Source: an uncultured Verrucomicrobiae bacterium (GTDB taxonomy: Bacteria; Verrucomicrobiota; Verrucomicrobiia; Palsa-1439). From it: a stretch of DNA of 64,000 nt. The notes beneath the pieces were generated by a model that worked only from the letters and a program-made list of their open reading frames with translations, was not told where the DNA came from and did not search any database. A program made the position numbers and the translations under genes. Where the stretch lies: NCBI GenBank assembly GCA_963817685.1, contig CAWFPN010000027.1, forward strand, positions 31,763 through 95,762, written 5' to 3'. This document shows positions 1,943-54,868 of this stretch, piece by piece. The first letter of the stretch is position 1; every line of letters begins with the position of its first letter.

Positions 1943-3128
1943 GAGGATGCGCGGGGCGTGTTTGCTAGCGATGGCAAATATTGCGCGACAGCCTCATCAA
2001 AGTCCTTTGCCCCGGCAATGATCCGGATTTCCACGCGCAGATAATAAATGGGAATGTCGCGCCGGTCGATCTTGGGGAAACGCACGGCGTCTTTTTCGGT
2101 GGTGAGAATGGCCTGCGCGCCGCTCCGGAGGCTGCGATTGATCATATTGATGATCTCCTGCTGGGAGTAGCGGTGATGGTCGGCGTAACGTTTCGCGTAG
2201 ATGACCTTCGCGCCCAGTCCGCGCAGCCCGTCCTCGAAACTTTCCGGCACGGCGATGCCGGAGATGGCGGCGACTTCCAGGCCCTGGAGTTTTTTCAAGG
2301 GAAGATGTTCGCCCGTGAAAACGTCCTGGAGGTAGAGCGGGTGGTGCGTGCACTCGATGATTTCGGCGGTCTCATTGAACTGGCGGATGGCCTTGCGAGA
2401 GTATTCGGCGCCGTGTTCGCTCGACTTGGTGATGAAAATGTAGTCGGCGCGTTTCAGGTTGGCGATCGGCTCGCGCAGCGTGCCGCGCGGCAGGAGGATA
2501 ATGGTTGCCGAACGGCGCGTTGCGGTCGATCAGGCAGATGTCCAGCCGGCTCTTTGAGTGCGAGATACTGGAACCCGTCATCGAGCAGGAGCGTGTCGCA
2601 GCCGAAATGCGAGATGGCGTAGCGGCCGCTTTTGACCCGGTCCTTGTCGACCAGCACGACGACGTCCTTGAGGTTGGAGGCGAGCATGTAGGGTTCGTCG
2701 CCGGCTTGTTCGCTGTCGAGCAGCAGCGATTGGCCGTCGGAAACGATCTTGGGCGGGACTTGGTCCTCCTGGAAGGTGATTTTGGCGAGGATACGCTGCC
2801 AGAGCGGGCGCGGGGTGCTTTTGTAACCGCGCGAGAGGATGGCCACGCGTCGTCCCGCTTGTTGCAGAGCGCGGGCGAAGACCTCGACAACGGGGGTCTT
2901 GCCGGTGCCGCCGACGGTGAGGTTGCCGATGCTGACGACCTGGCAGCCGAGAGTGTGATCGCGAAAGATGCGGTTGCGCCAGAGAAACAGGCGGATTTGC
3001 ACGGCGACTTCGTAGATGCGGGACAGGACGAGCAGAAACGCTCCGGCCACCCGCGCGCCAAAATCATGGCGCCGCTCAAAAATGACGTCCAGGACATATT
3101 GCTCGACGTTCTCAGTCCACTGCCACAT
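1906..3128 (-). CDS. lpxK: Tetraacyldisaccharide 4'-kinase LpxK, reading frame broken twice as assembled
   Basis: The N-terminal half is in ORF 2454..3128 (P-loop [20 protein letters not shown]). [18 protein letters not shown] is found only in a second frame. [25 protein letters not shown]...[20 protein letters not shown] is in a third frame and continues into ORF 1906..2298. Both changes are +1, near 2553-2555 and 2496-2497. Confidence 0.85.
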
Positions 3129-3161
3129 GGGGCGTCATACTGCCGCAGCGGCCGGGGAGGG

Positions 3162-5354
3162 TCAAGCCTGCCTCCGTTGCGCAGGCCGGGCGGTGGCGGA
3201 GGGCGCCTCGTTGACCACGCGGAAATCGATCTGGCGCTTGAAGACGTCGACGCGTTCGACTTGCACGCGCAGTCCGTCGCCGATCTGGATGATGCGCTTG
3301 GTGCGTTTGCCCACGAGGCGTTCCCGCTGCTCGTCGTAATGGTAGAAATCGTCATCGAGGGTGGAGATGTGGACGAGGCCTTGCACGAGGCTGTTGGTCA
3401 ATTCCACGAACAGGCCGAAGTTTCGCACGCCGGAGACGATGGCGTCCTGGGTGTCGAGCTGGCCGGTGGCCAGTTGCTGCTGGAAGTACTCCATCTTCTT
3501 CAATTCGACGGATTCCTTTTCGGCCTCGTCGGCGGTGCGTTCGGTCTGCGAAACGTGGTCGCAGATTTTGGCCAGTTCGCCCACGGCGTACCGCGTGAGT
3601 TTGCCCGCCGGATGCGCCGACGCGCCGAGCACGCTCAACAATGTGCGATGGACCACCAGGTCTGCGTACCGCCGGATCGGGGAGGTGAAATGGGTGTAAT
3701 ACTTTTTTGCCAGCCCGTAATGGCCGACCGGGTTGGGGGAGTAGCGCGCCCGTTTCAGCGAGCGCAGCAAGGCCAGGTTTACCGCGTACTCCTCGGGCTT
3801 GCCTTTGACTGCTTCCAGCAGCTTCTGCAGTTCGCGCCGGTGGGCCACGTCGCCGACTTTGTAGCCGAAGCTCTGGGCGTAGGCCCGGAAATCGCGGAGC
3901 CGCTCCAGGTCGGGGTCTTCGTGGATGCGGTAGAGGCAGGCGACCTGGAGGTTGCACAGGTGGCGTGCGGAGGCTTCGTTGGCGGCAAGCATGAATTCTT
4001 CGATGAGCTGATGGGAAATGTCGTTCTCGATTTTCTCGATGGCAATCGGTTTGCCGTTTTTGTCGAGCCGGACCTTGGTCTCGGGGAAATCCAGGCTCAG
4101 CGAGCCGTGCGCGAAGCGCTGGTGGCGCAGCTTGGACGCCAGCCGCCACATCTTTTTCAGTTCCCGCGTGAGTTCGTCGTGGTCATCGGAGGACTGGAGG
4201 CGCGCGAACGCCTCTTTATAGGTGAGCCGGTGGCGCGAGCGAATCACACTCAGGGAGAAGGAGACCTTGTGGGCCACAAGCTTGGAGTCGAATTCGATCA
4301 CGCAGGTCTGTGTCAGCCGGTCTTCGCGGGGGCGGAGGCTGCAGAGGCCGTTGGAAAGTTTTTCCGGAAGCATCGGCAGCACGCGGTCGACGAGATAGAC
4401 GCTGTTGCCGCGCGCCAGCGCTTCGCGGTCCAGCGCGCTTCCCGGCCTGACGTAGTGCGACACGTCGGCGATGTGCACGCCGAGCCGCCAGCCGCCGTCG
4501 GGCAACTCGTCCACGTTCACCGCGTCGTCGAAGTCCTTGGCGTCGTCGGGGTCGATGGTCACCACGAAATGGTTGCGGAAATCCGCGCGTTGTCCCAGGT
4601 CGCGTTCGGAGATGGTGTTCGGGATTGCCTCGGCCTCGGCCAGCACCTGCGGGGAGAACTGCATGGCCAGGTGATGTTTGCGGATGATGGCCAGGATATC
4701 CACACCCGGCGTGCTGGAAGCGCCGAGCACTTCGACGATTTCGCCTTCAGGATTGACGTGGCGGGATTTCCACTCGGCGAGTTTAACCACCACCTTGTCG
4801 CCGACCCGGGCGTTGCGGGTCTGCTTGGTGTAAATGTCGTGGATGATCCGGGGTTCGTCCGGGATGACGTAGTAAAACAGTTTGGTTTTCTGGAGCGTGC
4901 CGACGATGGTTTCGTTGGCGCGTTCCAAAATCCGGATCACCCGGCCCGAGCGTTTGTCCTCGGTCTTGAATCGTTTCGGCTCACGGTTCAGGCGGACGAC
5001 GACCTTGTCGCCGTGCATGGCAACCCAGGTGTCTTCCTGGCCGACATAAATGTCCCCGCCCGCCGTCGCGCCTTTTGGCTTTTCCGTGCCTTCAGGCTGA
5101 TCGGGAATGACGAAGGCGAACCCCTTTTCGTTGCACGAGATGCGCCCGATGACCAGGTCCGCTTCCTGGGGCGACACGAACCGGTCCTTGCGGACGCGGA
5201 CGATCTCGCCTTTGCGCAGCATGTCTTCCAGGACGCGGCGGAAGTCCCGGCGTTCCTCGGAGTTCAAGCGCAATTTCGAGGCAATGTCGGCCCGTTGCAG
5301 CGGATGATAGTCCGGCGCGGACAGAAGGGTCTGGATTTTGGTTCGGATGTCCAT
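3162..5354 (-). CDS. rnr: Ribonuclease R (RNB-family 3'-5' exoribonuclease)
   Basis: 730-aa ORF with an OB/cold-shock-like N-terminus, RNB catalytic region (FVVTIDPDDAKDFDDAV, HFTSPIRRYADLVVHR), a C-terminal S1 domain and a basic tail. Confidence 0.93.
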   Translation of the reverse strand: MDIRTKIQTLLSAPDYHPLQRADIASKLRLNSEERRDFRRVLEDMLRKGEIVRVRKDRFVSPQEADLVIGRISCNEKGFAFVIPDQPEGTEKPKGATAGGDIYVGQEDTWVAMHGDKVVVRLNREPKRFKTEDKRSGRVIRILERANETIVGTLQKTKLFYYVIPDEPRIIHDIYTKQTRNARVGDKVVVKLAEWKSRHVNPEGEIVEVLGASSTPGVDILAIIRKHHLAMQFSPQVLAEAEAIPNTISERDLGQRADFRNHFVVTIDPDDAKDFDDAVNVDELPDGGWRLGVHIADVSHYVRPGSALDREALARGNSVYLVDRVLPMLPEKLSNGLCSLRPREDRLTQTCVIEFDSKLVAHKVSFSLSVIRSRHRLTYKEAFARLQSSDDHDELTRELKKMWRLASKLRHQRFAHGSLSLDFPETKVRLDKNGKPIAIEKIENDISHQLIEEFMLAANEASARHLCNLQVACLYRIHEDPDLERLRDFRAYAQSFGYKVGDVAHRRELQKLLEAVKGKPEEYAVNLALLRSLKRARYSPNPVGHYGLAKKYYTHFTSPIRRYADLVVHRTLLSVLGASAHPAGKLTRYAVGELAKICDHVSQTERTADEAEKESVELKKMEYFQQQLATGQLDTQDAIVSGVRNFGLFVELTNSLVQGLVHISTLDDDFYHYDEQRERLVGKRTKRIIQIGDGLRVQVERVDVFKRQIDFRVVNEAPSATARPAQRRQA

Positions 5355-28029: not shown

Positions 28030-28105
28030 GCCCACGTAGCTCAGTTGGTAGAGCACGTCCTTGGTAAGGACGAGGTCATCGGTTCAAACCCGATCGTGGG
28101 CTCCA
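28030..28105 (+). tRNA. tRNA-Thr (anticodon GGT), CCA encoded
   Basis: Acceptor GCCCACG/CGTGGGC, D-arm AGCTCAGTTGGTAGAGC, anticodon stem CGTCC/GGACG with loop TTGGTAA, T-arm GGTTCAAACCC. Confidence 0.93.
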
Positions 28106-28180: not shown

Positions 28181-29376
28181 ATGGCCAAAGGTAAATTTGA
28201 ACGGACGAAACCACATCGCCAACGTCGGCACCATCGGTCACATCGACCATGGCAAGACGACGCTGACCGCCGCGCTGCTGCAGGTGTTGAGCAAACAGGG
28301 CAAGGCGGAGATCAAGAGCTACGCGGACATCGCCAAGGGCGGTACGGTGCGTGACGAGACCAAGACGGTGACGATCGCCGCGGCGCACGTCGAGTACGAG
28401 AGCGAGAAACGCCATTACGCTCACGTCGACTGCCCCGGCCATGCCGATTACGTGAAGAACATGATCACCGGCGCCGCGCAGATGGACGGCGCGATCCTGG
28501 TGGTCAGCGCCGCCGACGGCCCGATGCCGCAGACGCGCGAACACATTCTGCTGGCCCGCCAGGTCGGCGTGCCGGCGATTGTCGTCGCTTTGAACAAGGT
28601 GGACCTTGTTGACGATCCCGAACTGCTCGACCTCGTCGAACTCGAAGTGCGCGAGCTGTTGTCGGCGTACCAGTTCCCGGGCGACAAGACGCCGGTGATT
28701 CGCGTCAGCGCCTCGAAGGCGCTCGACGGCGATCCCGAGGCGGAGAAGCAATTGCTGGAGTTGGTCAAGGCGGTGGATGACTTCATCCCGCAGCCCACGC
28801 GCGAAATCGACAAGCCGTTCCTGATGCCGGTGGAAGACGTGTTCTCGATCACGGGCCGCGGCACGGTGGCCACGGGCCGTGTCGAGCGCGGCACGATCAA
28901 GGTCGGCGAAGAAGTCGAAATCGTCGGGTTGCGCGACACGCAGAAGACGGTCGTCACCGGCGTGGAAATGTTCCGCAAGCTGCTCGATCAGGCGGAAGCG
29001 GGCGACAACATCGGCGTGCTGTTGCGCGGCATTGAAAAGGAAGGCGATCGAGCGCGGCCAGGTGCTGGCCAAGCCCGGTTCGATCAAGCCGCACAAGCAA
29101 GTTCAAGGCGGAAGTGTACGTCCTGAGCAAGGAAGAAGGCGGCCGTCACACACCGTTCTTTAATGGATACCGGCCGCAGTTTTATTTCCGCACCACGGAC
29201 GTCACCGGCAGCATCGAAGTTGCCGGCGGGCGTGGAAATGGTGATGCCGGGCGACAACGTGAGCATGGAAGTCGAATTGATCACGCCCGATCGCGATGGA
29301 AAAGACGATGCGGTTCGCGATTCGCGAAGGCGGCCGAACGGTCGGCGCCGGCCGCGTGGCGGACATTATGGAGTAA
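28181..29376 (+). CDS. tuf: Elongation factor Tu, frame broken five times (+1 each) as assembled
   Basis: [12 protein letters not shown], then [19 protein letters not shown]... (ORF 28197..29126), [80 protein letters not shown] and [28 protein letters not shown] occupy successive frames. Sites near 28214-28218, 29043-29046, 29098-29101, 29216-29219 and 29286-29289. 1196 nt minus 5 gives 397 codons. Confidence 0.93.
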
Positions 29377-29405
29377 CGGCGGCATCGATCGGTTAGGAAC
29401 ACACG

Positions 29406-29574: not shown

Positions 29575-29650
29575 ACGCCAGTAGCTCAATTGGCAGAGCG
29601 ACGGTCTCCAAAACCGTAGGTTGGGGGTTCAAGTCCCTCCTGGCGTGCCA
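29575..29650 (+). tRNA. tRNA-Trp (anticodon CCA), CCA encoded
   Basis: Acceptor ACGCCAG/CTGGCGT, anticodon stem ACGGT/ACCGT with loop CTCCAAA, T-arm GGTTCAAGTCC. Confidence 0.92.
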
Positions 29651-32743: not shown

Positions 32744-36542
<3,799 letters not shown>

Positions 36543-36544
36543 TT

Positions 36545-39500
36545 ATGACCACCACAAAAGTTGCCCCTGCCATTCCGTCCGCCGCCGCGGCCACCGCCGC
36601 GGCCCGGGCCGCACTGGGCCTGGAAAAGACGGAAGCCTTTGATCACGTCAGCATTGGGGTCGCCTCGCCGGAGACGATCCGCAGTCCTGGTCGCACGGCG
36701 AAGTCAAGAACCCGGAGACGATCAACTATCGCACGTTCAAACCCGAGAAGGGCGGTTTGTTTTGCGAACGCATTTTCGGGCCTGTGCGCGACTGGGAATG
36801 CAATTGCGGCAAGTACAAGCGCATTAAGCACCGCGGCGTTATCTGTGATCGTTGCGGCGTGGAAGTGACGCTGGCCCGGGTGCGCCGCGAGCGCATGGGG
36901 CACATTGAACTGGCCGTGCCGGTCAGTCACATCTGGTTTTTCAAGGCGATGCCGTCCCGCGTGGGGTTGATGCTGGACATGACGGCGCGCGAACTTGAGC
37001 GCGTGTTGTATTACGAGGATTACATCGTCATCGACGAGGGCAAGACGCCGCTCAAGCCGAAGCAACTCCTGACCGAAATGGAGTATCGCGAGGCGCGCGA
37101 GCAATACGGCGACGGGTTCCTGGCCAAGATGGGTGCGGAAGCCGTGAAGGAATTGCTGACGAGGATTGATTTGCGCAAGCTGGGCCACGACCTCGAACAC
37201 CAGCTTGATTCCACCAAGAGCAAACAGATCCGCAAGAAGATCGCCAAACGCCTCAAGCTGGCGAAGGGTTTCCTTGCCTCGAAGATGCGGCCGGAGTGGA
37301 TGGTGCTGGAAGTGTTGCCCGTGATTCCACCGGACTTGCGTCCGCTGGTGCCGCTGGAAGGCGGACGGTTTGCGACGAGCGATCTGAACGATTTATACCG
37401 GCGCGTGATCAACCGGAACAACCGGTTGAAAAACCTGCTGCAACTCAAGACGCCGGACGTCATCATCCGCAACGAAAAACGGATGTTGCAGGAGGCGGTC
37501 GACGCGTTGCTCGATAACGGCCGCCACGGCCGTCCGGTGACGGGCGCCGGCGGGCGTTCCTTGAAGTCCCTGGCAGACATGCTTAAGGGCAAGCAAGGCC
37601 GGTTCCGCCAGAACCTGCTCGGCAAACGCGTGGATTACTCAGGCCGCTCGGTTATCGTGATCGGGCCGGAGCTGAAATTGAACCAGTGCGGGTTGCCGAA
37701 GAAGATGGCGCTGGTGTTGTTCGAGCCGTTTATCATCCGCAAACTGCGCGAGATGGGCCTGGTCCACACGATTCGCTCGGCCAAGAAAATGATCGAGCGC
37801 CAGTCGCCGGAGGTCTGGGACATCCTCGAAGAGGTCAGCAAAGGGCACCCGGTGCTGCTGAACCGCGCGCCGACGCTGCATCGTTTGTCGATCCAGGCGT
37901 TTGAGCCGTTGTTGATTGAAGGTGATGCGATCCGCATTCATCCGCTGGTTTGTACGGCGTACAATGCCGACTTTGACGGCGACCAGATGGCCGTGCACGT
38001 GCCGCTTTCCGTCGAAGCGCAACTGGAAGCCCGCATGCTGATGCTGGCGACTAACAATATTTTCTCGCCCTCCAGCGGCAAGCCGATCACCACGCCGACA
38101 CAGGACATCGCGCTGGGCATGTATTACCTGACCCATGGCGGCCGGCCGGTGCGCGCCGGGGAAGCGAAGGTATTGAAGCTGTTTTCCGACAAGGAAGAAG
38201 TTTTCTTTTGCCGCGATGAAGAAGACGTGACGATCCATGAACGGATTCGACTGAAGAACCCTGATTATGGCCGTCAGACCGTTTACGGTGATCCAGTTTC
38301 AAAAATTATTGAGACCACGGTGGGCCGGGTTATTTTCAATGAGATCTGGCCGGCGGAACTGGGATTCAACAACCGGGCGGTGGACAAATCCAAGCTCGGC
38401 GACATCATCTGGCAGTGCTATCGCACCGTGGGCCACGAGCGCACGGTGGAAGTGCTGGACAAACTCAAGACCCTCGGCTTCGACAGCGCCACCAAGGCGG
38501 GTATCTCCATCGGGATCGAAGACATGATCGTGCCGAAGGAGAAACAACAGGTCATTGGCGAAGCGCTCAAGGACGTGGCCGAGGTCGAGAAACAGTACCG
38601 CCGCGGTATCATCACGGACGGCGAGCGCTACAACAAGATCATCGACATCTGGACGCATGCCACCGACAAGATTTCCAACCTGATGTACGCGACGATGGAA
38701 CACAACGGCGGCAAGCCGGACCTGAATCCGGTGTTCATCATGGTGGACAGCAAGGCCCGCGGTTCGCGCCAGCAGATCCGTCAGTTGGCGGGCATGCGCG
38801 GGTTGATGGCCAAGCCGTCGGGCGAAATCATCGAGCGGCCGATTCTGTCGAATTTCCGCGAAGGCCTTAGTGTGCTGGAATATTTCATCTCGACGCACGG
38901 CGCCCGCAAAGGTCTGGCCGACACGGCGTTAAAGACCGCTGACTCGGGATATCTGACGCGCAAGCTTGTGGACGTGGCGCAGGATGTCATCGTGCAGGAA
39001 GAGGATTGCGGCACCGTCAACGGCATCGTGGTCAAGCCGATTTACGAAGGCGAGGACGAAGTGGTGCGGCTCAGCGAGCGTATTATCGGACGCATCGCCG
39101 CCGAAGACATTACGGACCCGATGACGAAGAAGAAAATCGTCAAGGCGAATACCGAGGTGGACGAAGCGGCGGCGGAAGCTGTCACCAAGCTCGGCATCGA
39201 GCGGGTCAAGATTCGATCGGTGCTGACCTGCGAATCCCGGCGCGGTGTATGCGCCATGTGCTATGGCCGTAATCTGGCGACCAGCAAGCTGGTCAAGATC
39301 GGCCAGGCGATCGGTATCATTGCCGCACAATCGATTGGTGAACCAGGCACGCAGCTCACGATGCGTACGTTTCATATCGGCGGTACGGCCAGCCAGGTGT
39401 TCAAGCAGCCGCAGATCAAGGCCAAGAACGACGGTATTCTCCGGTATCACGATCTGCGCGCGGTGCGCCGGATCGAAGGCAACTGGATCGTGCTGAACAA

Positions 39501-40731
39501 GAACGGCCAGGTCGCAATTTATAACGAAGAAGGTCGCGAATTGGAGCGCTACTCCGTGGTTGTAGGCGCCGAGATCGCCGTGGCGGATGGCGCTCCTGTC
39601 AAGAAGGGCGATACGTTCGTCCAGTGGGACCCGTACAATGTCCCCGTGCTTTCGGAACTGGCCGGCAACATTAAGTTCCATGACATCATTGAAGGCATCA
39701 CAATGCGCAAGGAACTTGATGAAGCCACTGGCCTGATGGGCACGGTCATCATCGAGCACAAGGAAGACCTGCACCCGCAGATCAATTTGGTCAACGAAAG
39801 CGGGGAAGTGCTCGCGTTCTACGCGATCCCAGCGGGCGCGCACATTGTGGTGGAGGAAGGCCATAAGATTCAAGCGGGCGCGCTTCTGGCCAAGACGCCG
39901 CGAAAAGTTTTTCGAACAAAGGACATCACCGGCGGTCTTCCGCGTGTAGCGGAGTTGTTCGAGGCGCGCCGTCCAAAGGACGCGGCGGAAATCGCGAAGA
40001 TCGACGGGATCGTTGATTTCGCGGGAACGGTGCGGGGCAAACGCCGTATTTTAGTGAAGGATCCAAAGACCAACGCCGAGGAGGAGCATCTGATCCCGCA
40101 CAGCAAACACATCATCGTGTTTCGCGGTGACGCGGTGAAGAAGGGCCAGCAGTTGACCGAAGGCCCAGTGGTGCCGCACGAGGTGTTGGAAGTCTGCGGT
40201 CCTCAGGATTTGCAGGAGTATCTGGTCAACGAAGTGCAGGAAGTTTATCGTCTGCAGGGTGTCGAGATCAACGACAAGCACATCGAGATCATCGTGCGGC
40301 AGATGCTGCGCAAGGTCCGGGTGGTTGATCCGGGCGACACACGCTTCCTCTGGGACGACCAGATTGACAAGATTACATTCGAAGAAGAGAACCGGCGGGT
40401 GACGGAGGCGGGAGGCAAACCCGCCGAGGCGCAGCCGGTGTTGCTGGGTATCACGAAGGCTTCTCTGGGGACGGAATCGTTCATCAGCGCCGCTTCGTTC
40501 CAGGACACAACGCGTATTTTGACCGAGGCGGCGACGCTTGGACGGGTGGACAATCTGCGCGGCTTCAAAGAAAACGTGATCATGGGGCACTTGATTCCTG
40601 CCGGGACGGGGTATTACAAGCATCGCAACGTGAAACTGGTGCCGCTGGGAGAACCGGTGGAACAGGCCGAACCATTGGAAATCCTCAAGGAGGAGAAGCC
40701 CACGGAAGAGGCTGCCCAGGCGGCGAATTGA
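36545..40731 (+). CDS. rpoC: DNA-directed RNA polymerase subunit beta', one -1 frame change near codon 47 as assembled
   Basis: [47 protein letters not shown] (ORF 36545..), then [45 protein letters not shown]... (frame of ORF 36757..40731, which contains [12 protein letters not shown]). Junction at 36683-36688. Confidence 0.94.
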
Positions 40732-41774: not shown

Positions 41775-43932
<2,158 letters not shown>

Positions 43933-43936
<4 letters not shown>

Positions 43937-44241
43937 ACAATCAACGAATTCGCATTCGCCTCAAAGGCTACGACCATCGGCTGCTCGATCAGTCGGCCCA
44001 CGACATTGTCGAGACGGCCAAGCGCACCGGTGCCAAAGTGGCCGGCCCGATTCCGCTACCAACCGACATCTGGCGTCACACGGTCAACCGGTCGCCGCAC
44101 TGTGACAAGAAATCGATGGAGCAATTCGAAATGCGCACGCACAAGCGGTTGCTTGACATCATTGACCCGACGGCCAAGACGGTGGATGAGTTGAAGAAGT
44201 TGAACCTGCCGGCCGGCGTGGACATTACCATCAAGATTTAG
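43933..44241 (+). CDS. rpsJ: 30S ribosomal protein S10
   Basis: 102 aa: [44 protein letters not shown] overlap with fusA. Confidence 0.96.
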
Positions 44242-44243
44242 TC

Positions 44244-44903
44244 ATGGAACTGCTAGGCAAAAAAATCGGAATGACGCAGTTGTTCGATGCGAAGGGCAAT
44301 GTTGCCGGTGTGACCGTCGTCGAACTCGGTCCCTGCACGGTTCTGCAGAAGCGCACACCCGAGGCGGACGGCTATCATGCGTTGCAACTCGGGTTGGGCG
44401 AACGCAAGCCGAAGCATGCGACCAAGGCGCTGGCAGGCCATTGCAAGAAGGCCAATGCAGCGCCGGCGCGGTTTATTCGCGAGTGGCGCACCGATGAGGG
44501 CGTGGCGTTCAACGTCGGGGACAAGATCACAGTAAAGGAATTTCAGGCGGGCCAGTTTGTGGACGTTATTGCCACCAGCAAGGGCAAGGGATTTCAAGGT
44601 GTTGTGCGCCGGCATAAGTTTGCGGGTGGCGATATGACGCACGGGGCGAAGGGATGGCATCGCCGGGGTGGCGCCATCGGTCAGCGTCTGTTTCCCGGCC
44701 GCGTGTTCAAGAACATGAGGATGCCCGGCCACATGGGGCACACACGTATTACCACCCAGAACCTGCGAGTGGTACAGGTGCGCGAAGCGGACAATTTGAT
44801 CTTCATTGAAGGTTCGGTCCCTGGTCCGCGAGGAGCGTTTGTGATTGTACGGCATGCGAAGAAGAAAACCAAACCGGCAGCCAAGGCGGCATCGGCGACA
44901 TGA
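44244..44903 (+). CDS. rplC: 50S ribosomal protein L3
   Basis: 219 aa: LLGKKIGMTQLFDAKGNVAGVTVVE...KGKGFQGVVRRHKFAGG. Confidence 0.96.
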   Translation: MELLGKKIGMTQLFDAKGNVAGVTVVELGPCTVLQKRTPEADGYHALQLGLGERKPKHATKALAGHCKKANAAPARFIREWRTDEGVAFNVGDKITVKEFQAGQFVDVIATSKGKGFQGVVRRHKFAGGDMTHGAKGWHRRGGAIGQRLFPGRVFKNMRMPGHMGHTRITTQNLRVVQVREADNLIFIEGSVPGPRGAFVIVRHAKKKTKPAAKAASAT

Positions 44904-45532
44904 AACTTCCCGTGATTAACATTTCAGGCGCGGCCAAGGGCGAAGTCGAATTCGACGACGCGTTGCTGATCAAGGACGGCAAAGGCACACAGGCCGTCCA
45001 CGATGCGGTCACCGCATACATGGCCAACCAGCGCCTGGGCACATCGAAGGTCAAGCAGCTGAGCGAAGTGCGCGGCAGCGGCAAGAAGCCCTGGAAGCAA
45101 AAGGGGACGGGCCGGGCGCGCGCGGGTTCGTTTGCGTCACCGTTGTGGCGTGGCGGCGGCGTTGTGTTTGGTCCGCATTTGCGCGACTACACGATCAAGG
45201 TGTCGAAGAAAACAAAGACGCTGGCGTTTCGCAAGGCGTTGAGCGAACGGTTGGCGGCGGGGGATGTGATCGTGTTGGACGAGTTGAAACTCGGCAGCCG
45301 TAAGACGAAGGAATTCGTCGGCATCGTCAGCAAGCTGACGGCGGAAGGACAGACGATGCTGATCGTGGCCGACCAGGTCGATGAGAATTTGAAGCTGGCA
45401 TCGCGGAATGTGCCGGATGTGCAGATCGAGCAGGCGGATTCGTTGAACGTGTACGAACTGCTGCAGTTTGACAAAATCGTGGTGACCAAGGCGGCCTTGG
45501 TGAAGATCCAGGCGCGATCGGGGAAATCATGA
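44900..45532 (+). CDS. rplD: 50S ribosomal protein L4
   Basis: 210 aa: SGKKPWKQKGTGRARAGSFASPLWRGGGVVFGP. Confidence 0.95.
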   Translation: MKLPVINISGAAKGEVEFDDALLIKDGKGTQAVHDAVTAYMANQRLGTSKVKQLSEVRGSGKKPWKQKGTGRARAGSFASPLWRGGGVVFGPHLRDYTIKVSKKTKTLAFRKALSERLAAGDVIVLDELKLGSRKTKEFVGIVSKLTAEGQTMLIVADQVDENLKLASRNVPDVQIEQADSLNVYELLQFDKIVVTKAALVKIQARSGKS

Positions 45533-45813
45533 AAGATCCGTACGACGTGATTAAAACCGTTCGCGTGACGGAAAAGGGAACTGGCCTGGTCGAGAAGGCG
45601 AACCAATATCAGGTTGTCGTCGATAAGCATGCGAACAAGATTGAGATCAAACAGGCGGTGGAAAAGGTGTTCAAGGTGAAGGTTGTGCGCGTGAATACGA
45701 TGCACGTGCGGGGCAAGGCCCGCCGCGAGCGCACGGTTCAGTTTGGCCGCACACCGGCCTGGAAAAAGGCGCTGGTCACGCTCAAAGAAGGCGATAAAAT
45801 CGAGATTTCGTAG
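45529..45813 (+). CDS. rplW: 50S ribosomal protein L23
   Basis: 94 aa. YDVIKTVRVTEKG...KIEIKQAVEKVFKVKVVRVNTM. Operon position. Confidence 0.93.
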   Translation: MKDPYDVIKTVRVTEKGTGLVEKANQYQVVVDKHANKIEIKQAVEKVFKVKVVRVNTMHVRGKARRERTVQFGRTPAWKKALVTLKEGDKIEIS

Positions 45814-45819
45814 GCAATC

Positions 45820-46658
45820 ATGGGCTTAAAATCATTCAGACCGTTTACACCGTCGCTGCGCGGGACCGTGCTTCCTGATTTCTCGGAGATTACGAAACGC
45901 AAACCCGAGCGGAAACTGACGGTCGCCAAGCGCAAGACCGGCGGACGCAATTGCCATGGACGGCTGACGTCGCGGGGCATTGGCGGCGGCCACAAGCAAC
46001 GATATCGGATCATCGATTTCAAGCGCGACAAGGTCGGCATCCCGGCGACCGTAGAGGCGATTGAGTACGACCCGAACCGCTCGGCCCGTATTGCGCTGCT
46101 GAAGTACCAGGACGGGGAGAAGCGTTATATTATCGCGCCCATGGGCCTGGAGGTGGGGGCGAAGGTCGTCAGCGGACCGGACGCGGAATTGGCCATCGGC
46201 AATTCGGTGCCGCTACGCAAGATTATGTCCGGGCTGCCCATCCACAACATCGAGTTGCACAAGGGCCACGGCGGCCAGCTTTGCCGGAGTGCTGCGATGG
46301 CGGCGCAGGTGATGGCGTGTGGAAGGCGATTACGCGACCGTGAAATTGCCTTCGGGCGAAATCCGCAAAATCCATGCGGATTGCTACGCCACGATCGGCC
46401 AGGTAGGAAACCCGGACCACATGAACATCATGCTGGGCAAGGCGGGGCGCAGCCGGTGGCTGGGGATTCGTCCGCATCACGCGCGGCATGGCGCGCAACC
46501 CGGTCGATCATCCGATGGGCGGCGGCCAGGGCAAGAGCAAGGGCGGCGGCGGCTGGCATCATCCCGTTTCCCCTTGGGGCAAACTGGCCAAGGGCGGCAT
46601 GACGCGGCGGAAGAAGAAGTATTCGAACTCATTGATTTTGGAGCGAAGGAAGAAATAA
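45820..46658 (+). CDS. rplB: 50S ribosomal protein L2, frame broken twice (+1, +1) as assembled
   Basis: [15 protein letters not shown]...[26 protein letters not shown] (ORF 45820..), then [51 protein letters not shown] (ORF 46319..), then [59 protein letters not shown] in a third frame ending at TAA 46656-46658. Sites near 46318-46322 and 46474-46476. Confidence 0.92.
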
Positions 46659-46937
46659 ATGGGACGCTCACTGAAAAAAGGTCCGTTTGTCGACGAGCAT
46701 CTGTTCGGCAAGGTGCAGAGGATGTCCGCGTCGGACAAGAAGCCGATCAAGACGTGGTCACGGCGCTCGATGATTATTCCGGAGTTTGTCGGTCATACAT
46801 TTTTGGTGCACAACGGCAAGCAACATACGCCGGTGTTCGTGACGGAAAACATGGTCGGCCATCGTCTGGGTGAGTTTTCTCCCACGCGAACGTTCAAGGC
46901 GCATGGCGCGCATACGGAAAAGGCGGCTGCGAAGTAA
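46659..46937 (+). CDS. rpsS: 30S ribosomal protein S19
   Basis: 92 aa: [15 protein letters not shown]...[48 protein letters not shown]. Confidence 0.96.
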
Positions 46938-46955
46938 GGCCGTGGAGAGTGCATC

Positions 46956-47714
46956 GTGCTAAGCGGACGAGCACGAGCGGGAATTTGGTTGCTGGTTGTT
47001 TTGTTCTTTGGATGGGTTGGACCTTCGAGGGCGGAGGAGTTGCCGCAGATGCAGATCGAGGAGTTGCGTCTGGCTGTGGAGAAGCTCCGCGCCGAAGACG
47101 CCGACCTCAAGCAACAGCTTGGGCAGCGCGATGCGGTGATTCGTGTCGTGCAGGAAAATCTGGCGATCGCGCGGACGGAAAGCGAGCTGTTTCAAAAGAA
47201 ATGGACAGAGGCGCGGCTGCGAGCGCAAACGCTGGGAGTCAATTTTGACGATGCCAACGGGACGGCCGGGCAGCGCCAGTTAATCGAGAGTCTAAGGGCT
47301 CTCTATTTGGCGCAGACCGAAGAGCAGCGTCTGGCAGCGCAGTTGAATGGACTGCTGGCGGCCGTCGAGTCAAATCGGGACGTGGCCGTTCAGGCGGAAC
47401 GGACACGGAGCCTGCTCGCGGCCCTGGACGACAAGAAGCAGGGGCCGGCGGCCGAGACAAAGCCCTCGACATCGACACTGCAGTCGGCCAAGGTGTTGGA
47501 CGTCAACGCTACGTTGCAGATGGTCGTGCTCGATGTCGGAGAGTGGCAGGGGGCGCGCATCGGGATGCCGTTTGCGGTGGTTCGCAAAGGCAAGGTGATC
47601 GCCGGGTTGCGCGTCATCGAGGTCCGGCGACGGATCTGCGGGGCGTTGATCGAGCAGGCGAAGGACGAGACAGTGCCTGTGCCGGGAGACTTGGCGCGGG
47701 TGGTGAAAAATTAG
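46956..47714 (+). CDS. Hypothetical exported coiled-coil protein embedded in the S10 operon between rpsS and rplV (no family recognised)
   Basis: 252-aa ORF. GTG start is preceded by GGAGAG (46944-46949). Signal/anchor GIWLLVVLFFGWVGPSRA, a ~150-aa Q/E/R/L-rich heptad region, a polar linker, and a C-terminal beta-rich module KVLDVNATLQMVVLDVGEWQGARIGMPFAVVRKGKVIAGLRVIEVRRRICGALIE. Same strand as its neighbours, with 18-nt and 8-nt spacers. Confidence 0.6.
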   Translation: MLSGRARAGIWLLVVLFFGWVGPSRAEELPQMQIEELRLAVEKLRAEDADLKQQLGQRDAVIRVVQENLAIARTESELFQKKWTEARLRAQTLGVNFDDANGTAGQRQLIESLRALYLAQTEEQRLAAQLNGLLAAVESNRDVAVQAERTRSLLAALDDKKQGPAAETKPSTSTLQSAKVLDVNATLQMVVLDVGEWQGARIGMPFAVVRKGKVIAGLRVIEVRRRICGALIEQAKDETVPVPGDLARVVKN

Positions 47715-47722
47715 AAATTTAT

Positions 47723-48058
47723 ATGGAAGTCAAAGCGATAACAAAATACGCGCGGATGAGCCCGGCAAAGATGGGCGAAGTGACGCGCATGATCCAGGGT
47801 TTGAGCGCGTCGCGGGCGCTCGAAGTGTTGCGGTTTGTCCCGCGAAAGTCGGCGCGCATGGTGGAGAAGACGCTGAAATCCGCCATTGCCAACGCCACCA
47901 ACAACGCCAAGCTGGGCGCGGACTCGTTGCGCGTGAAGGAAGCGGTGGCCAATGAAGGGCCGCGCTTGAAACGTTGGCAACCGAAGGCGCGCGGGAGTGC
48001 GGGGCCGATTATTAAGCGGACCAGCCATATTCAGATCATCCTGACGGACGGACAATAA
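47723..48058 (+). CDS. rplV: 50S ribosomal protein L22
   Basis: ORF 47543..48058 trimmed to ATG 47723. MEVKAITKYARMSPAKMGEVTRMIQG...RWQPKARGSAGPIIKRTSHIQIIL. Confidence 0.95.
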   Translation: MEVKAITKYARMSPAKMGEVTRMIQGLSASRALEVLRFVPRKSARMVEKTLKSAIANATNNAKLGADSLRVKEAVANEGPRLKRWQPKARGSAGPIIKRTSHIQIILTDGQ

Positions 48059-48061
48059 TTT

Positions 48062-48745
48062 ATGGGCCAAAAAGTAAATCCAGTGGGATTTCGTGTGGCG
48101 GTCACCAAGGACTGGCTGTCGAAGTGGTATGCCGACAAGAGGGACTACGCCCCGTTACTGCTGGAGGACATTAAGGTACGCGAGATCGTGAAGGCCAGGC
48201 TGGCCTCCGCCGCCGTTTCCAAGATTTTGATCGAGCGGTATGCCAACCGGGCGCGCATCACGATTTTCACGGCCCGGCCCGGCATTGTGATCGGCCGCAA
48301 GGGCGCGGAGATTGACAAGCTGAAGGAAGAACTGGCGCGCCTGACGGGCAAGGAGATTTATGTCGACATTGTCGAGATCAAGACGCCGGAATTGGATGCG
48401 CAGTTGGTGGCTGAGAACATTGCACTGCAATTGGAGAGGCGCATCAGTTTTCGGCGCGCGATGAAGAAGTCGGTGCAAACGACGATGGATTTTGGAGCGC
48501 AGGGAATCAAGGTCGCCTGCGGCGGCCGGCTGGGCGGGGCGGAGCTGGCCCGGCACGAGAAGTATCGCACAGGCAAGATCCCGTTGCACACCCTGCGGGC
48601 CGACATTGATTATGGATTTGCCGAAGCGACCACGGTGTACGGCAAGATCGGCGTGAAAGTCTGGATTTGCAAGGGTGAGCGTCCGTTGAAGCAACAGCCG
48701 TCGGCGGTGACGCCGGTCGGGCCGACAGCGCCCGCAGTAGCGTAA
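48062..48745 (+). CDS. rpsC: 30S ribosomal protein S3
   Basis: 227 aa: [18 protein letters not shown]...[31 protein letters not shown]. Confidence 0.96.
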
Positions 48746-48757
48746 GAGGAATTTGCG

Positions 48758-49168
48758 ATGCCATTGATACCAGCCAGAGTGAAACACCGCAAGGCGCAAC
48801 GGGGCAGCCGCACCGGCACGGCCTATCGCGGGGCCACGGTTGCGTTTGGTGAGTACGGATTGCAGGCGCTGGAGCGGGCGTGGATCACCAACACACAGAT
48901 CGAGGCGTGTCGCGTGGCGTTGTCACGCAATATGAAGCGGCGCGGCAAGCTGTGGATCCGGATTTTTCCGGACAAGCCGGTGACGAAGCGGCCGCCCGAA
49001 ACGCGCATGGGCAAGGGCAAGGGCAACCCGGAATTCTGGGTGGCCGTGGTGCGGCCGGGCAACGTATTGTTTGAGATGGGTGGCGTGACGGAGGTTCTGG
49101 CACGCGAATCTCTGCGCTTGGCCGCGTCGAAGCTGCCGATCCGGACGCGATTTTTAACGAGACGCTAG
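48758..49168 (+). CDS. rplP: 50S ribosomal protein L16
   Basis: 136 aa: [13 protein letters not shown]...[25 protein letters not shown]. Confidence 0.96.
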
Positions 49169-49170
49169 AG

Positions 49171-49377
49171 ATGAAATCAAAAGAGATCCAGGAATTGACG
49201 GAAGCCGAGGCGCAAGCCAAGTTGCGGGACCTGCGTCAGGAGTTGTTCAACCTGCGGCTGCAGCAGCAGACCGCTAGGCTGGAGAGGCCGAGCCACCTGC
49301 GGGAAGTGCGCCACGACATTGCCCGGATTCAAACCAATTTGAGCCAGCGCCGGCTGCAGAGCGCTGTCAGTAAGTAA
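49171..49377 (+). CDS. rpmC: 50S ribosomal protein L29
   Basis: 68 aa. [27 protein letters not shown]. Operon position. Confidence 0.92.
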
Positions 49378-49393
49378 CGAAACGGCCAGGATT

Positions 49394-49684
49394 ATGACGG
49401 AACAAGCACAAAGCGGCGTAAACAAAAAAGAGGTTGTCGGCGAAGTGGTCAGCGACAAGATGGCGAAGACCATCGTCGTGGAGGTTGCCCGCCGGGTCCG
49501 CCATCCGCGTTATCACAAGGTGATGACGAGATACAAAAAGTTTTACGCGCACGACGAAAAGAGCGAAGCGGGCGTGGGGGACACAGTGCGCATCGTTGAG
49601 TCGAGGCCGCTGAGCAAATTGAAGCGCTGGACGCTGGCGCAGGTGATGGAGAAGGCGCCGCAGATTGAGAAAGTGGAAGCATGA
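49394..49684 (+). CDS. rpsQ: 30S ribosomal protein S17
   Basis: 96 aa: [42 protein letters not shown]. Confidence 0.94.
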
Positions 49685-50046
49685 TTCAGATTCGCACACA
49701 TCTGGATGTGGCTGATAACACGGGCGCGCGCGTTGCATGGGCGATTGGCGTGCTGGGTCACCAGAAGCGTTACGCCCGCATCGGGGACGTGATCAAGGCC
49801 CATGTCAAGGAAGCGTCGCCGGACGGCACGGTGAAAAAGGGCGAGGTGGTAACGTGCGTCGTGGTTCGGACTAGGTCCGTGTTGCGTCGGGCGGACGGCT
49901 CTTACCTTCGTTTTGACAGCAACGCGGTGGTGATTATCGACGACCAGCATAATCCGAAAGGGACGCGCATTTTCGGTCCTGTCGCCCGCGAGCTGCGGGA
50001 CAAGAATTTCACCAAAATTATTTCGCTGGCGCCCGAGGTGTTGTGA
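49681..50046 (+). CDS. rplN: 50S ribosomal protein L14
   Basis: 121 aa: [16 protein letters not shown]...[28 protein letters not shown]. Confidence 0.96.
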
Positions 50047-53512: not shown

Positions 53513-54868
53513 ATGTTTTCTGCCTTCGCCAATTGCTGGAAAATCCCCGAGTTAAGGAAGCGGATACTTTTCACTCTGGGCATTGTCGCGCTGGCTCGAC
53601 TCGGGGCAAATATTCCGTGTCCGGGTGTCGATCCGACTGCCTTGACGGAGTACATCGGTCGCGTACAGAGCCAGGTGGGCGGCAGCTTTGTGGGGATGGC
53701 GATCCTGCTGACGGGCGGCGGGATTTCCCGTTGCGCTGTATTTGCCCTTGGCGTGATGCCGTATATTACGTCCACCATCATTATGCAATTGTTGACGGCG
53801 GTTTTGCCGTCGCTTGAGCGGTTGCGACAGGAAGGCCAGACCGGACAAACAAAGATTATTCAGTACGGACGGTACATGACCGTTCTGATCTGCGTGATTC
53901 AGGGATTCTTCCTGGCGAAGGCGTTTGAGCACCCCGACAAGTTGTTTCCAGGGTTCACTGGCGTGTTGGTGGCGAGTCCGGGGATTGGATTTGAGGTTCT
54001 GACCGTCCTGACGATCACCAGCGGCAGTGTGCTTTTGATGTGGTTGGGCGAGCAAATCACCGAGCGCGGGATCGGCAATGGAGTCTCGTTGATTATCACC
54101 GTGGGAATTGTCGACCGTCTTCCCAGCGCTATCGGGCAGGCGTGGGCGTTGTTTTTTCCGGGACCGGGCGGGGAGAGTCAATTCAACATCCTGCATGCGA
54201 TTTTGCTGCTGATCATGGCGGTGGCAGTGACGGCGATTGTGATTGCCGTAACCGAGGCGCAGCGGAAAATTCCGGTGCAATACGCCAAGCAGGTTATTGG
54301 CCGCAAGGTTCGGGGCGGCGGGCAGACTTTCATGCCGTTGCGGGTGAACTATTCGGGAGTGATGCCGATTATTTTCGCTCAGGCGATTTTGCTTTTTCCA
54401 CAGAAACTGCTCTCGTTTTCTCACCTGGCCGCCCTGCAAAAGATGGCGCGGGCCTTGACCGAAGGCGAGTTCCTGTACCTGACGTTGTACGGGATGATGA
54501 TCCTGTTCTTCTCGTATTTTTGGGTGGCGACACAATTTAACCCGTTGCAGATAGCTGACGATTTGAAGAAGTACGGCGGGTACGTGCCCGGGATCCGTCC
54601 GGGCAAACCGACTGCCGAGTTTCTCGATCATACGATGACCCGGATCACGCTGGCGGGCGCGGTGTTTCTGACGTTTGTCGCCGTGATTCCGTACATTCTG
54701 TCGCACCGGTTTCGATTGCCGTCTTTGACGGCTAGTTTCTTTGGCGGGACGAGCCTGTTGATCACCGTGGGTGTCATGTTGGACACGATGCGGCAGGTGG
54801 AGTCTCACTTGATCATGCGTCACTATGATGGATTCCTGCGCAAGGGCAAGATGCGCGGGCGTCGTTGA
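53513..54868 (+). CDS. secY: Preprotein translocase subunit SecY
   Basis: 451 aa, 10-TM pattern. LGVMPYITSTIIMQLL, ITERGIGNGVSLII, KYGGYVPGIRPGKPTAEFL. Confidence 0.96.
   Translation: MFSAFANCWKIPELRKRILFTLGIVALARLGANIPCPGVDPTALTEYIGRVQSQVGGSFVGMAILLTGGGISRCAVFALGVMPYITSTIIMQLLTAVLPSLERLRQEGQTGQTKIIQYGRYMTVLICVIQGFFLAKAFEHPDKLFPGFTGVLVASPGIGFEVLTVLTITSGSVLLMWLGEQITERGIGNGVSLIITVGIVDRLPSAIGQAWALFFPGPGGESQFNILHAILLLIMAVAVTAIVIAVTEAQRKIPVQYAKQVIGRKVRGGGQTFMPLRVNYSGVMPIIFAQAILLFPQKLLSFSHLAALQKMARALTEGEFLYLTLYGMMILFFSYFWVATQFNPLQIADDLKKYGGYVPGIRPGKPTAEFLDHTMTRITLAGAVFLTFVAVIPYILSHRFRLPSLTASFFGGTSLLITVGVMLDTMRQVESHLIMRHYDGFLRKGKMRGRR

Follow-up and report, generated by a model that had tools for sequence, protein, structure and literature searches.

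A conserved gene between rpsS and rplV in the S10 operon of Verrucomicrobiota encodes a predicted exported stalk-plus-barrel protein, a candidate periplasmic scaffold

Introduction

The adjacency of rpsS and rplV, the genes of the ribosomal proteins S19 and L22, is among the most stable gene neighbourhoods in bacteria. Non-ribosomal passenger genes are well known from the ribosomal protein operons: secY, adk and map in the spc operon, rpoA in the alpha operon and secE-nusG upstream of rplK are near-universal, stand at the ends of operons or between them, run collinear with their neighbours and have no visible signals of their own, and in the case of SecY the product is destined for the envelope. 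We have analysed a DNA stretch of 64,000 nucleotides (the window) from an uncultured Verrucomicrobiae bacterium (GenBank assembly GCA_963817685.1, contig CAWFPN010000027.1, positions 31,763 to 95,762 of the forward strand), where a non-ribosomal gene coding for a predicted exported protein stands between rpsS and rplV. The layout is that of an operon passenger: the gene lies on the same strand as its neighbours, the spacers are 18 and 8 nt long, no promoter or terminator of its own is seen, and the open reading frame (ORF) fills the gap. Unlike the passengers listed above, it splits the rpsS-rplV pair inside the S10 operon, and it is lineage-restricted among the loci sampled.

The domain plan of the protein also has described counterparts. 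EnvC-type regulators are likewise exported, and in them too a beta-rich domain at the C-terminus comes after a long stretch of helix, but the window protein lacks their LytM/M23 domain. According to a review of periplasmic adaptors, the C-terminal domain of FlgT, the F1-ATPase beta subunit's N-terminal domain and the adaptor barrels have one six-strand topology (PMC4446572). In the cited complexes the barrels of FlgT, of F1 and of the membrane fusion proteins (MFP) are parts of multi-subunit assemblies. The third system to be compared is MreC (PF04085), the scaffold protein of the elongasome.

Results

The gene is a fixed member of the S10 operon

The gene under study (46956..47714, on the forward strand, as are the adjacent genes, the spacers and the protein features given below) codes for 252 amino acids followed by a TAG stop, and belongs to an unnamed family. 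In the species-representative genomes a homologue was found between S19 and L22 in 35 of 35 loci, within an otherwise standard S10-to-S17 series, and all these loci are labelled as Verrucomicrobiota, Verrucomicrobiia or Verrucomicrobiae metagenome-assembled genomes (MAGs). Metagenomes yielded 80 further loci with homologues at 28-82% identity; S19 was directly upstream in 66/66 and L22 directly downstream in 67/67, these being the loci with enough flanking sequence to judge. With a profile of the C-terminal domain alone, 1305 cluster representatives were recognised at E<=1e-3, of which 324 remained at E<=1e-10; the majority are 160-310 aa long with the domain at the C-terminus. When divergent representatives with signal, coil and barrel were sampled, all ten occupied the S19-L22 slot, including one on a single 2.37-Mb contig, with 2 nt from the S19 stop to the start codon, and another on a 1.46-Mb contig named Terrimicrobiaceae, which is a different NCBI class. 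The profile search made with a diverse alignment brought back the same clade.

In every locus the gap between S19 and L22 measures 556-1087 nt and consists nearly entirely of one ORF, the spacers around the gene in the other loci being 2 to about 90 nt long. Since the S19, L22, S3 and L16 proteins of the carriers go down to 50-79% identity with those of the window, the arrangement is ancient, and the conservation of the position over such distances implies selection on co-expression with the ribosomes and not on the protein alone. Within Verrucomicrobiota this place between rpsS and rplV in the S10 operon is the permanent home of the gene. In a preliminary description, made from the sequence of the window, the gene was considered native but inserted between its two neighbours: the slot and the native character were borne out, the wording of an insertion was not, because a fixed resident across deeply divergent Verrucomicrobiota is concerned.

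Some peculiarities of individual carriers were also recorded. In two distant representatives (P0175 and P0213) the barrel runs in frame into L22, perhaps because a stop is missing, because of an error in sequencing or because the call was made at a contig edge; even so, the order of barrel and then L22 holds in distant lineages. The L22 ORFs of distant carriers have 157-215 aa as compared to 111 aa in the window (L038:5002-5523, L039:4764-5411, L041:4284-4757, L126:2328-2819), thus L22 has long C-terminal extensions in those lineages. Two S10 operons that differ from each other are found in the MAG SMAG_U14747 (DATKNW01; loci L004 and L031). Both contain the extra gene, the products being 57% and 46% identical to the window protein, respectively. 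A mixed bin is suggested by this pair of operons.

The open reading frame is a real gene under purifying selection

At E<=1e-3 the ORF has 253 homologues in a protein search, mainly of about 250 aa and 48-100% identical, and it is intact and collinear with them; in an alignment of 25 homologues 40 columns are invariant. The ratio of non-synonymous to synonymous substitution rates (dN/dS) was 0.16-0.39 against eleven orthologues, as compared to about 0.07-0.10 for the flanking ribosomal genes, these values being rough because dS is near saturation. The identical protein in public data is called from Met32, that is, minus the leader, and the N-terminus of most homologues extends through the conserved hydrophobic segment. 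Furthermore, an independent Logan contig (L036, run ERR11571142) aligned to 46523..48312 of the window with 1 mismatch and 0 gaps, hence the S19-ORF-L22-S3 junctions are reproduced outside the source assembly.

This check against an independent contig matters because the window is otherwise rich in indels, with essential genes split over reading frames while the ORF under study is intact. Relative to L001, rplB (45820..46658) has two 1-nt insertions near 46316 and 46473; fusA (41775..43936) and tuf (~28181..29400) are divided over three frames each; rpoB (33725..36542) is seen as two overlapping ORFs, and rpoC (start 36757) has no N-terminus. Judged from the sequence, these broken genes look like the product of an indel-rich, perhaps long-read, assembly rather than pseudogenes. 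Such an assembly might well contain a spurious GC-rich ORF, a misassembled junction or a recently inserted mobile element. These readings are refuted and keep a negligible probability: the frame is intact and has hundreds of collinear homologues, dN/dS is below 1, the barrel is modelled with confidence, both junctions recur in the independent contig, the base composition has no break, and the gene keeps its fixed place over deep divergence. The two possibilities that the preliminary description had itself set up for checking, misassembly at the junctions and a spurious frame, are excluded by the L036 contig and contradicted by the homologues and the dN/dS values, respectively. The ORF is a real gene under purifying selection. 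A fusion of S19 and the ORF by stop-codon read-through was considered and rejected: the common frame of the two in the window is not found in L005 or L006.

Predicted export signal

The first 26 residues (46956..47033) have the layout of a Sec-type signal peptide, MLSGRARAGIWLLVVLFFGWVGPSRA, with the mature protein starting with EE. By inspection, the N-terminus has all that defines a type I signal peptide, namely a positive n-region, an h-region of 7-15 residues and small residues at -3/-1: R5 and R7 form the positive n-region, a hydrophobic core of 13-14 residues, IWLLVVLFFGWVG, follows, S-R-A occupies the -3/-1 region and the mature start is acidic. Divergent homologues keep this n/h/c layout without any sequence likeness (ASA/AE, AFA/AE, TYA/AD and THA/DS around the cleavage site). 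The N-terminus therefore has the pattern of a cleavable Sec signal, the cleavage being judged by eye, and the signal peptide or N-terminal anchor of the preliminary description agrees with the layout preserved in the homologues. AlphaFold2 models a hydrophobic N-terminal helix at aa 5-20. The positive n-region together with the acidic stretch past the hydrophobic core predicts, by the positive-inside rule, that the bulk of the protein is periplasmic, whether cleaved or not.

A few relatives (P0230 and P0204) have a lipobox (VFAG/C, VAGG/C) instead of the type I signal; a lipoprotein nature was rejected for the window protein, which has no lipobox. P0230 and P0204, together with P0225, are short forms of 160-210 aa with a single helix of about 50 residues, and P0230 is still situated in the S19-L22 slot.

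The export signal bears on the question whether the protein might work in the cytoplasm as a ribosome or translation factor of this lineage, its hydrophobic N-terminus then being no export signal. The gene stands inside the most conserved ribosomal operon, the fold class of the barrel is shared with the cytoplasmic F1/V1-ATPase barrels, so that the fold does not require an exported location, and the barrel is net basic (12 K/R versus 8 D/E). However, the n-region, the core, the -3/-1 residues and the acidic start are conserved family-wide, some members even have lipoboxes, by the positive-inside rule the body belongs outside the cytoplasm even with an uncleaved signal, and no ribosomal or translation-factor profile matched. 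The periplasmic location that is predicted speaks against direct binding to the ribosome, and we regard a cytoplasmic factor as very improbable.

Helical stalk, linker and beta-barrel

The signal is followed by a helical stalk of about 130 aa (aa 31-161, 47046..47438), which in the AlphaFold2 full-length model, built on the family alignment, is composed of the helices 31-92, 104-138 and 143-161. The heptad-rich coiled coil noted earlier is thus retained as a helical region, but clear heptads were found in the first helix only (shuffle p about 0.005). The most conserved helical motif, ENLAIARTESELFQKKW (aa 67-83, 47154..47204), consists of invariant or near-invariant columns of the 25-homologue alignment and can be recognised as L-[TS]-E-[SN]-L-A-x-A-x-x-E in distant members, including the short forms with one helix. 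Between helix 1 and helix 2 the alignment and the model agree in a conserved helix break, TLGVNFDD (aa 92-99, 47229..47252), in which L93, G94 and D99 are invariant; the break is modelled at aa 93-103. The predicted template modelling score (pTM) of the full-length model is 0.34, therefore we make no claim on the packing of the helices.

A polar linker (aa 162-177, 47439..47486), as previously suggested, corresponds to a region of low model confidence, with the predicted local distance difference test (pLDDT) below 50 at aa 162-173, and it is variable in length and sequence in the family. The invariant module of the family is the C-terminal domain (aa 178-252, 47487..47711), a six-stranded beta-barrel with its strands in aa 178-249. 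Modelled alone it reached a pLDDT of 90.4 and a pTM of 0.81, in good agreement with the small barrel of about 75 aa expected from the alternating pattern of the sequence. G195, G203, M204, R224, G244 and D245 are invariant even in members of 20-30% identity. Lpp-like tethering through a C-terminal lysine was rejected, the C-terminal residue not being conserved (KN, KS, ARR, AQQ).

Fold relatives and named families

As anticipated, no recognised family was found by sequence: scans of the window protein and 25 homologues against Pfam and NCBIfam gave coiled-coil noise only, and no meaningful match came from the PDB sequences when full-length and barrel profiles were searched against them, the best being a MexC-like adaptor (E=0.22 over 31 residues). 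Neither a ribosomal family of Pfam or NCBIfam nor any PDB chain was matched by sequence. The automatic names of the homologues clash (MreC for two and EnvC for one, all by the Joint Genome Institute (JGI), chromosome segregation ATPase, NADH dehydrogenase subunit) and probably reflect coiled-coil bias.

In the Foldseek comparison the best matches of the barrel were to FlgT (8z5n_0, query-normalised TM score 0.71; 3w1e, 0.68), with weak E values of 2e-3 to 7e-3, followed by the N-terminal barrels of F1/V1-ATPases; overall the query-normalised TM scores were 0.64-0.71 at E 2e-3 to 2e-2. The modelled barrel is thus of the FlgT-C / F1-ATPase N-terminal / efflux-adaptor fold class, with which it shares six strands and a short helix. 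The likeness is limited to this fold: the window protein has no significant sequence similarity to FlgT and lacks its N and M domains, so the N-M-C architecture is absent and no match to PF16548, PF16539 or PF16538 was seen, while the neighbours are ribosomal protein genes and not flagellar ones. Distant members gave sub-threshold matches to Pfam FlgT_C, 14-21 bits, on the G...G.R.GMP hairpin, and P0186, a relative with four repeats, reached 27.3 bits versus the cut-off of 27. From the ATPases and the adaptors the protein differs in having no ATPase, lipoyl or membrane-proximal (MPD) domain, and membership in the HlyD family (lipoyl domain, alpha-hairpin, barrel) is contradicted by the lack of any HlyD-type Pfam match. 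The trait that sets it apart within the fold class is a barrel on a helical stalk after a signal peptide.

The comparison with MreC deserves separate treatment, since the protein could be a divergent, relocated form of this elongasome scaffold that has lost one barrel. The outline is shared (hydrophobic N-terminal segment, coiled coil, periplasmic barrel with a G...G.x.GMP-like hairpin), two homologues carry the name MreC as mentioned above, the NCBIfam MreC model gave E=0.24, and the four-repeat relative, a lipoprotein whose gene neighbourhood is uninformative, also matches the MreC barrel core with 22 bits on the G...G.R.GMP hairpin. Nevertheless, the NCBIfam score (NF010520) is 10.7 bits versus a cut-off of 343, the window protein had no match to Pfam MreC at E<=10 and 0/25 homologues had one at E<=1, and no MreC structure was present in the top 50 Foldseek matches. 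The window protein has one barrel (aa 178-249) in place of two, and a short signal-like core of 13-14 residues instead of a transmembrane anchor. Its home is the S10 operon and not the mreB-mreC-mreD cluster: the position is rpsS-rplV in every locus examined, and only the distant paralogues of L040 stand near mreB-mreC.

This L040 locus (1975-3912, on a 40%-GC contig) holds two tandem paralogues with true transmembrane anchors, one of 381 aa with two barrels and the other of 254 aa with one barrel, in the order lgt-rluD, paralogues, murA-mreB-mreC, and these are the only family members met in a cell-wall gene context. A canonical Pfam MreC is encoded three genes away, and the coexistence of the paralogues with it implies that the family is not simply MreC. 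Taking both sides together, descent from MreC is quite unlikely. The neighbourhood, although a single observation, points to a possible connection with cell-wall growth.

The protein resembles a loose class of periplasmic stalk-plus-barrel scaffolds and is a member of neither the MreC nor the FlgT family. The full-text literature searched on the S10 operon and on the signature proteins of the Planctomycetes-Verrucomicrobia-Chlamydiae (PVC) group contained no description of the family, nor of any Verrucomicrobia gene situated between rpsS and rplV. The operon passenger as such and the barrel fold are known; the unnamed family and its unprecedented, deeply conserved position are new.

Layout of the locus

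Upstream of the gene is rpsS (46659..46937), an ORF of 92 aa which ends with TAA, and downstream rplV (47723..48058), an ORF of 111 aa with an ATG start. Window S19 is 64-92% and L22 50-95% identical to their counterparts in related loci, where the S19 orthologues (L036-L045, L126-L128) were assigned to Pfam Ribosomal_S19. The rest of the S10 operon of the window has the canonical order. Direct reading of the spacers confirmed the preliminary description to the nucleotide, both in the 759-nt same-strand ORF between the S19 stop at 46937 and the L22 start at 47723 and in the translation signals: the 18-nt spacer (46938..46955) holds the Shine-Dalgarno sequence GGAGAG (46944..46949) 6 nt ahead of GTG 46956, which is the earliest possible start 3' of the in-frame stop, and the second spacer (47715..47722) is 8 nt long and A/T-rich. 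A GGAG-type motif followed by a GTG start is recurrent in close orthologues, and in several relatives the start codon is only 2-3 nt past the S19 stop.

The leader of rplV (47715..47722) is A/T-rich and without a Shine-Dalgarno sequence, in the relatives as well, and the short A/T-rich leader of rpsC (48059..48061) also lacks one. Since the extra gene in contrast has a clear GGAG motif and a GTG start, initiation signals differ within one operon.

Neither promoter-like nor terminator-like sites were detected within the ORF or next to it by a consensus scan of 43500..50000, and GC content and skew are continuous with the flanks, in line with the earlier reading of the locus. The spacers leave no room for a promoter or terminator, and none could be detected; from this layout, transcription of the gene on the S10 polycistron is expected. 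On a larger scale, tRNA-Thr(GGT) (28030..28105) and tRNA-Trp(CCA) (29575..29650) stand on either side of tuf; after them come the rpoB and rpoC ORFs (33725..40731), succeeded by the str, S10, spc and alpha operons; this order makes the window one long canonical translation super-cluster. secY (53513..54868) belongs to the same super-cluster as the ORF, and secY, adk and map are in the adjacent spc operon of the window.

Discussion

Based on the layout of the locus and the predicted export signal, the product is probably an envelope protein which is made in step with the ribosomes. We propose that this exported stalk-plus-barrel resident of the S10 operon is a co-expressed periplasmic scaffold. 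The function is inferred, and we hold the proposal with modest confidence, giving it about an even chance. In such a mechanism the gene would be transcribed on the S10 polycistron and its synthesis would track that of the ribosomal proteins, as in the case of secY, adk and map in the spc operon. The product would be an abundant periplasmic scaffold self-associating via its helical stalk, and it might dock onto an envelope partner by the barrel's invariant loop face (G-x3-G-x-R-x-G-M-P, R224, G244-D245). The partner could be a component of cell-wall synthesis or of outer-membrane assembly, and as a result the capacity for envelope building would be tied to the growth rate. The preliminary description had named as possible roles both a coupling of envelope or division functions to the growth rate and a lineage-specific factor associated with the ribosome or the translocon.

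Several points weigh against this proposal. Co-transcription and abundance are read from the layout, and the cleavage of the signal peptide from inspection. The codon adaptation of the gene, 0.61, is like that of secY, adk and map (0.60-0.62) rather than that of the ribosomal proteins (0.59-0.77), and this value together with the GTG start means that the protein level may be far below that of the ribosomal proteins, although the measure is weak or uninformative because of the weak codon bias of the organism. The structural search led to a generic small barrel and with weak E values only (2e-3 to 2e-2), MreC is missing from its top 50 matches, and the murA-mreB-mreC neighbourhood was seen at one locus in one organism.

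The location of the gene would also suit a factor of secretion, such as a periplasmic holdase or release factor at the outer face of SecYEG/YidC, whose gene would stand in a ribosomal cluster just as secY and secE do. The exported protein is encoded in the same super-cluster as secY, its long helical arms and small barrel core loosely recall periplasmic chaperones, and expression tied to translation capacity fits a secretion helper. On the other hand, no likeness to Skp/OmpH, PpiD, YfgM or SecDF appeared in Pfam, NCBIfam, PDB sequences or Foldseek, and the sole neighbourhood seen outside the operon consists of cell-wall and not secretion genes. We consider a role at the translocon unlikely, and we prefer the periplasmic scaffold.

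Carried one step further, the scaffold proposal leads to a previously overlooked protein of the periplasm, present throughout the phylum and in its dosage firmly tied to the synthesis of ribosomes. It would serve Verrucomicrobiota, and these bacteria only, as an envelope scaffold or spacer coupled to the growth rate. This is a tentative and rather doubtful extension; if true, it would join the production of ribosomes to the growth of the envelope by a direct genetic link and, at the same time, give a clean synapomorphy of the phylum.

Verrucomicrobiota are an ecologically major and poorly studied phylum with an unusual organisation of the envelope and the periplasm. The protein described here is a candidate abundant envelope component of these bacteria, and its gene may serve as a simple genomic marker for the lineage in metagenomes. 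The locus also offers a test case for how bacteria match the growth of their envelope to their translation capacity.

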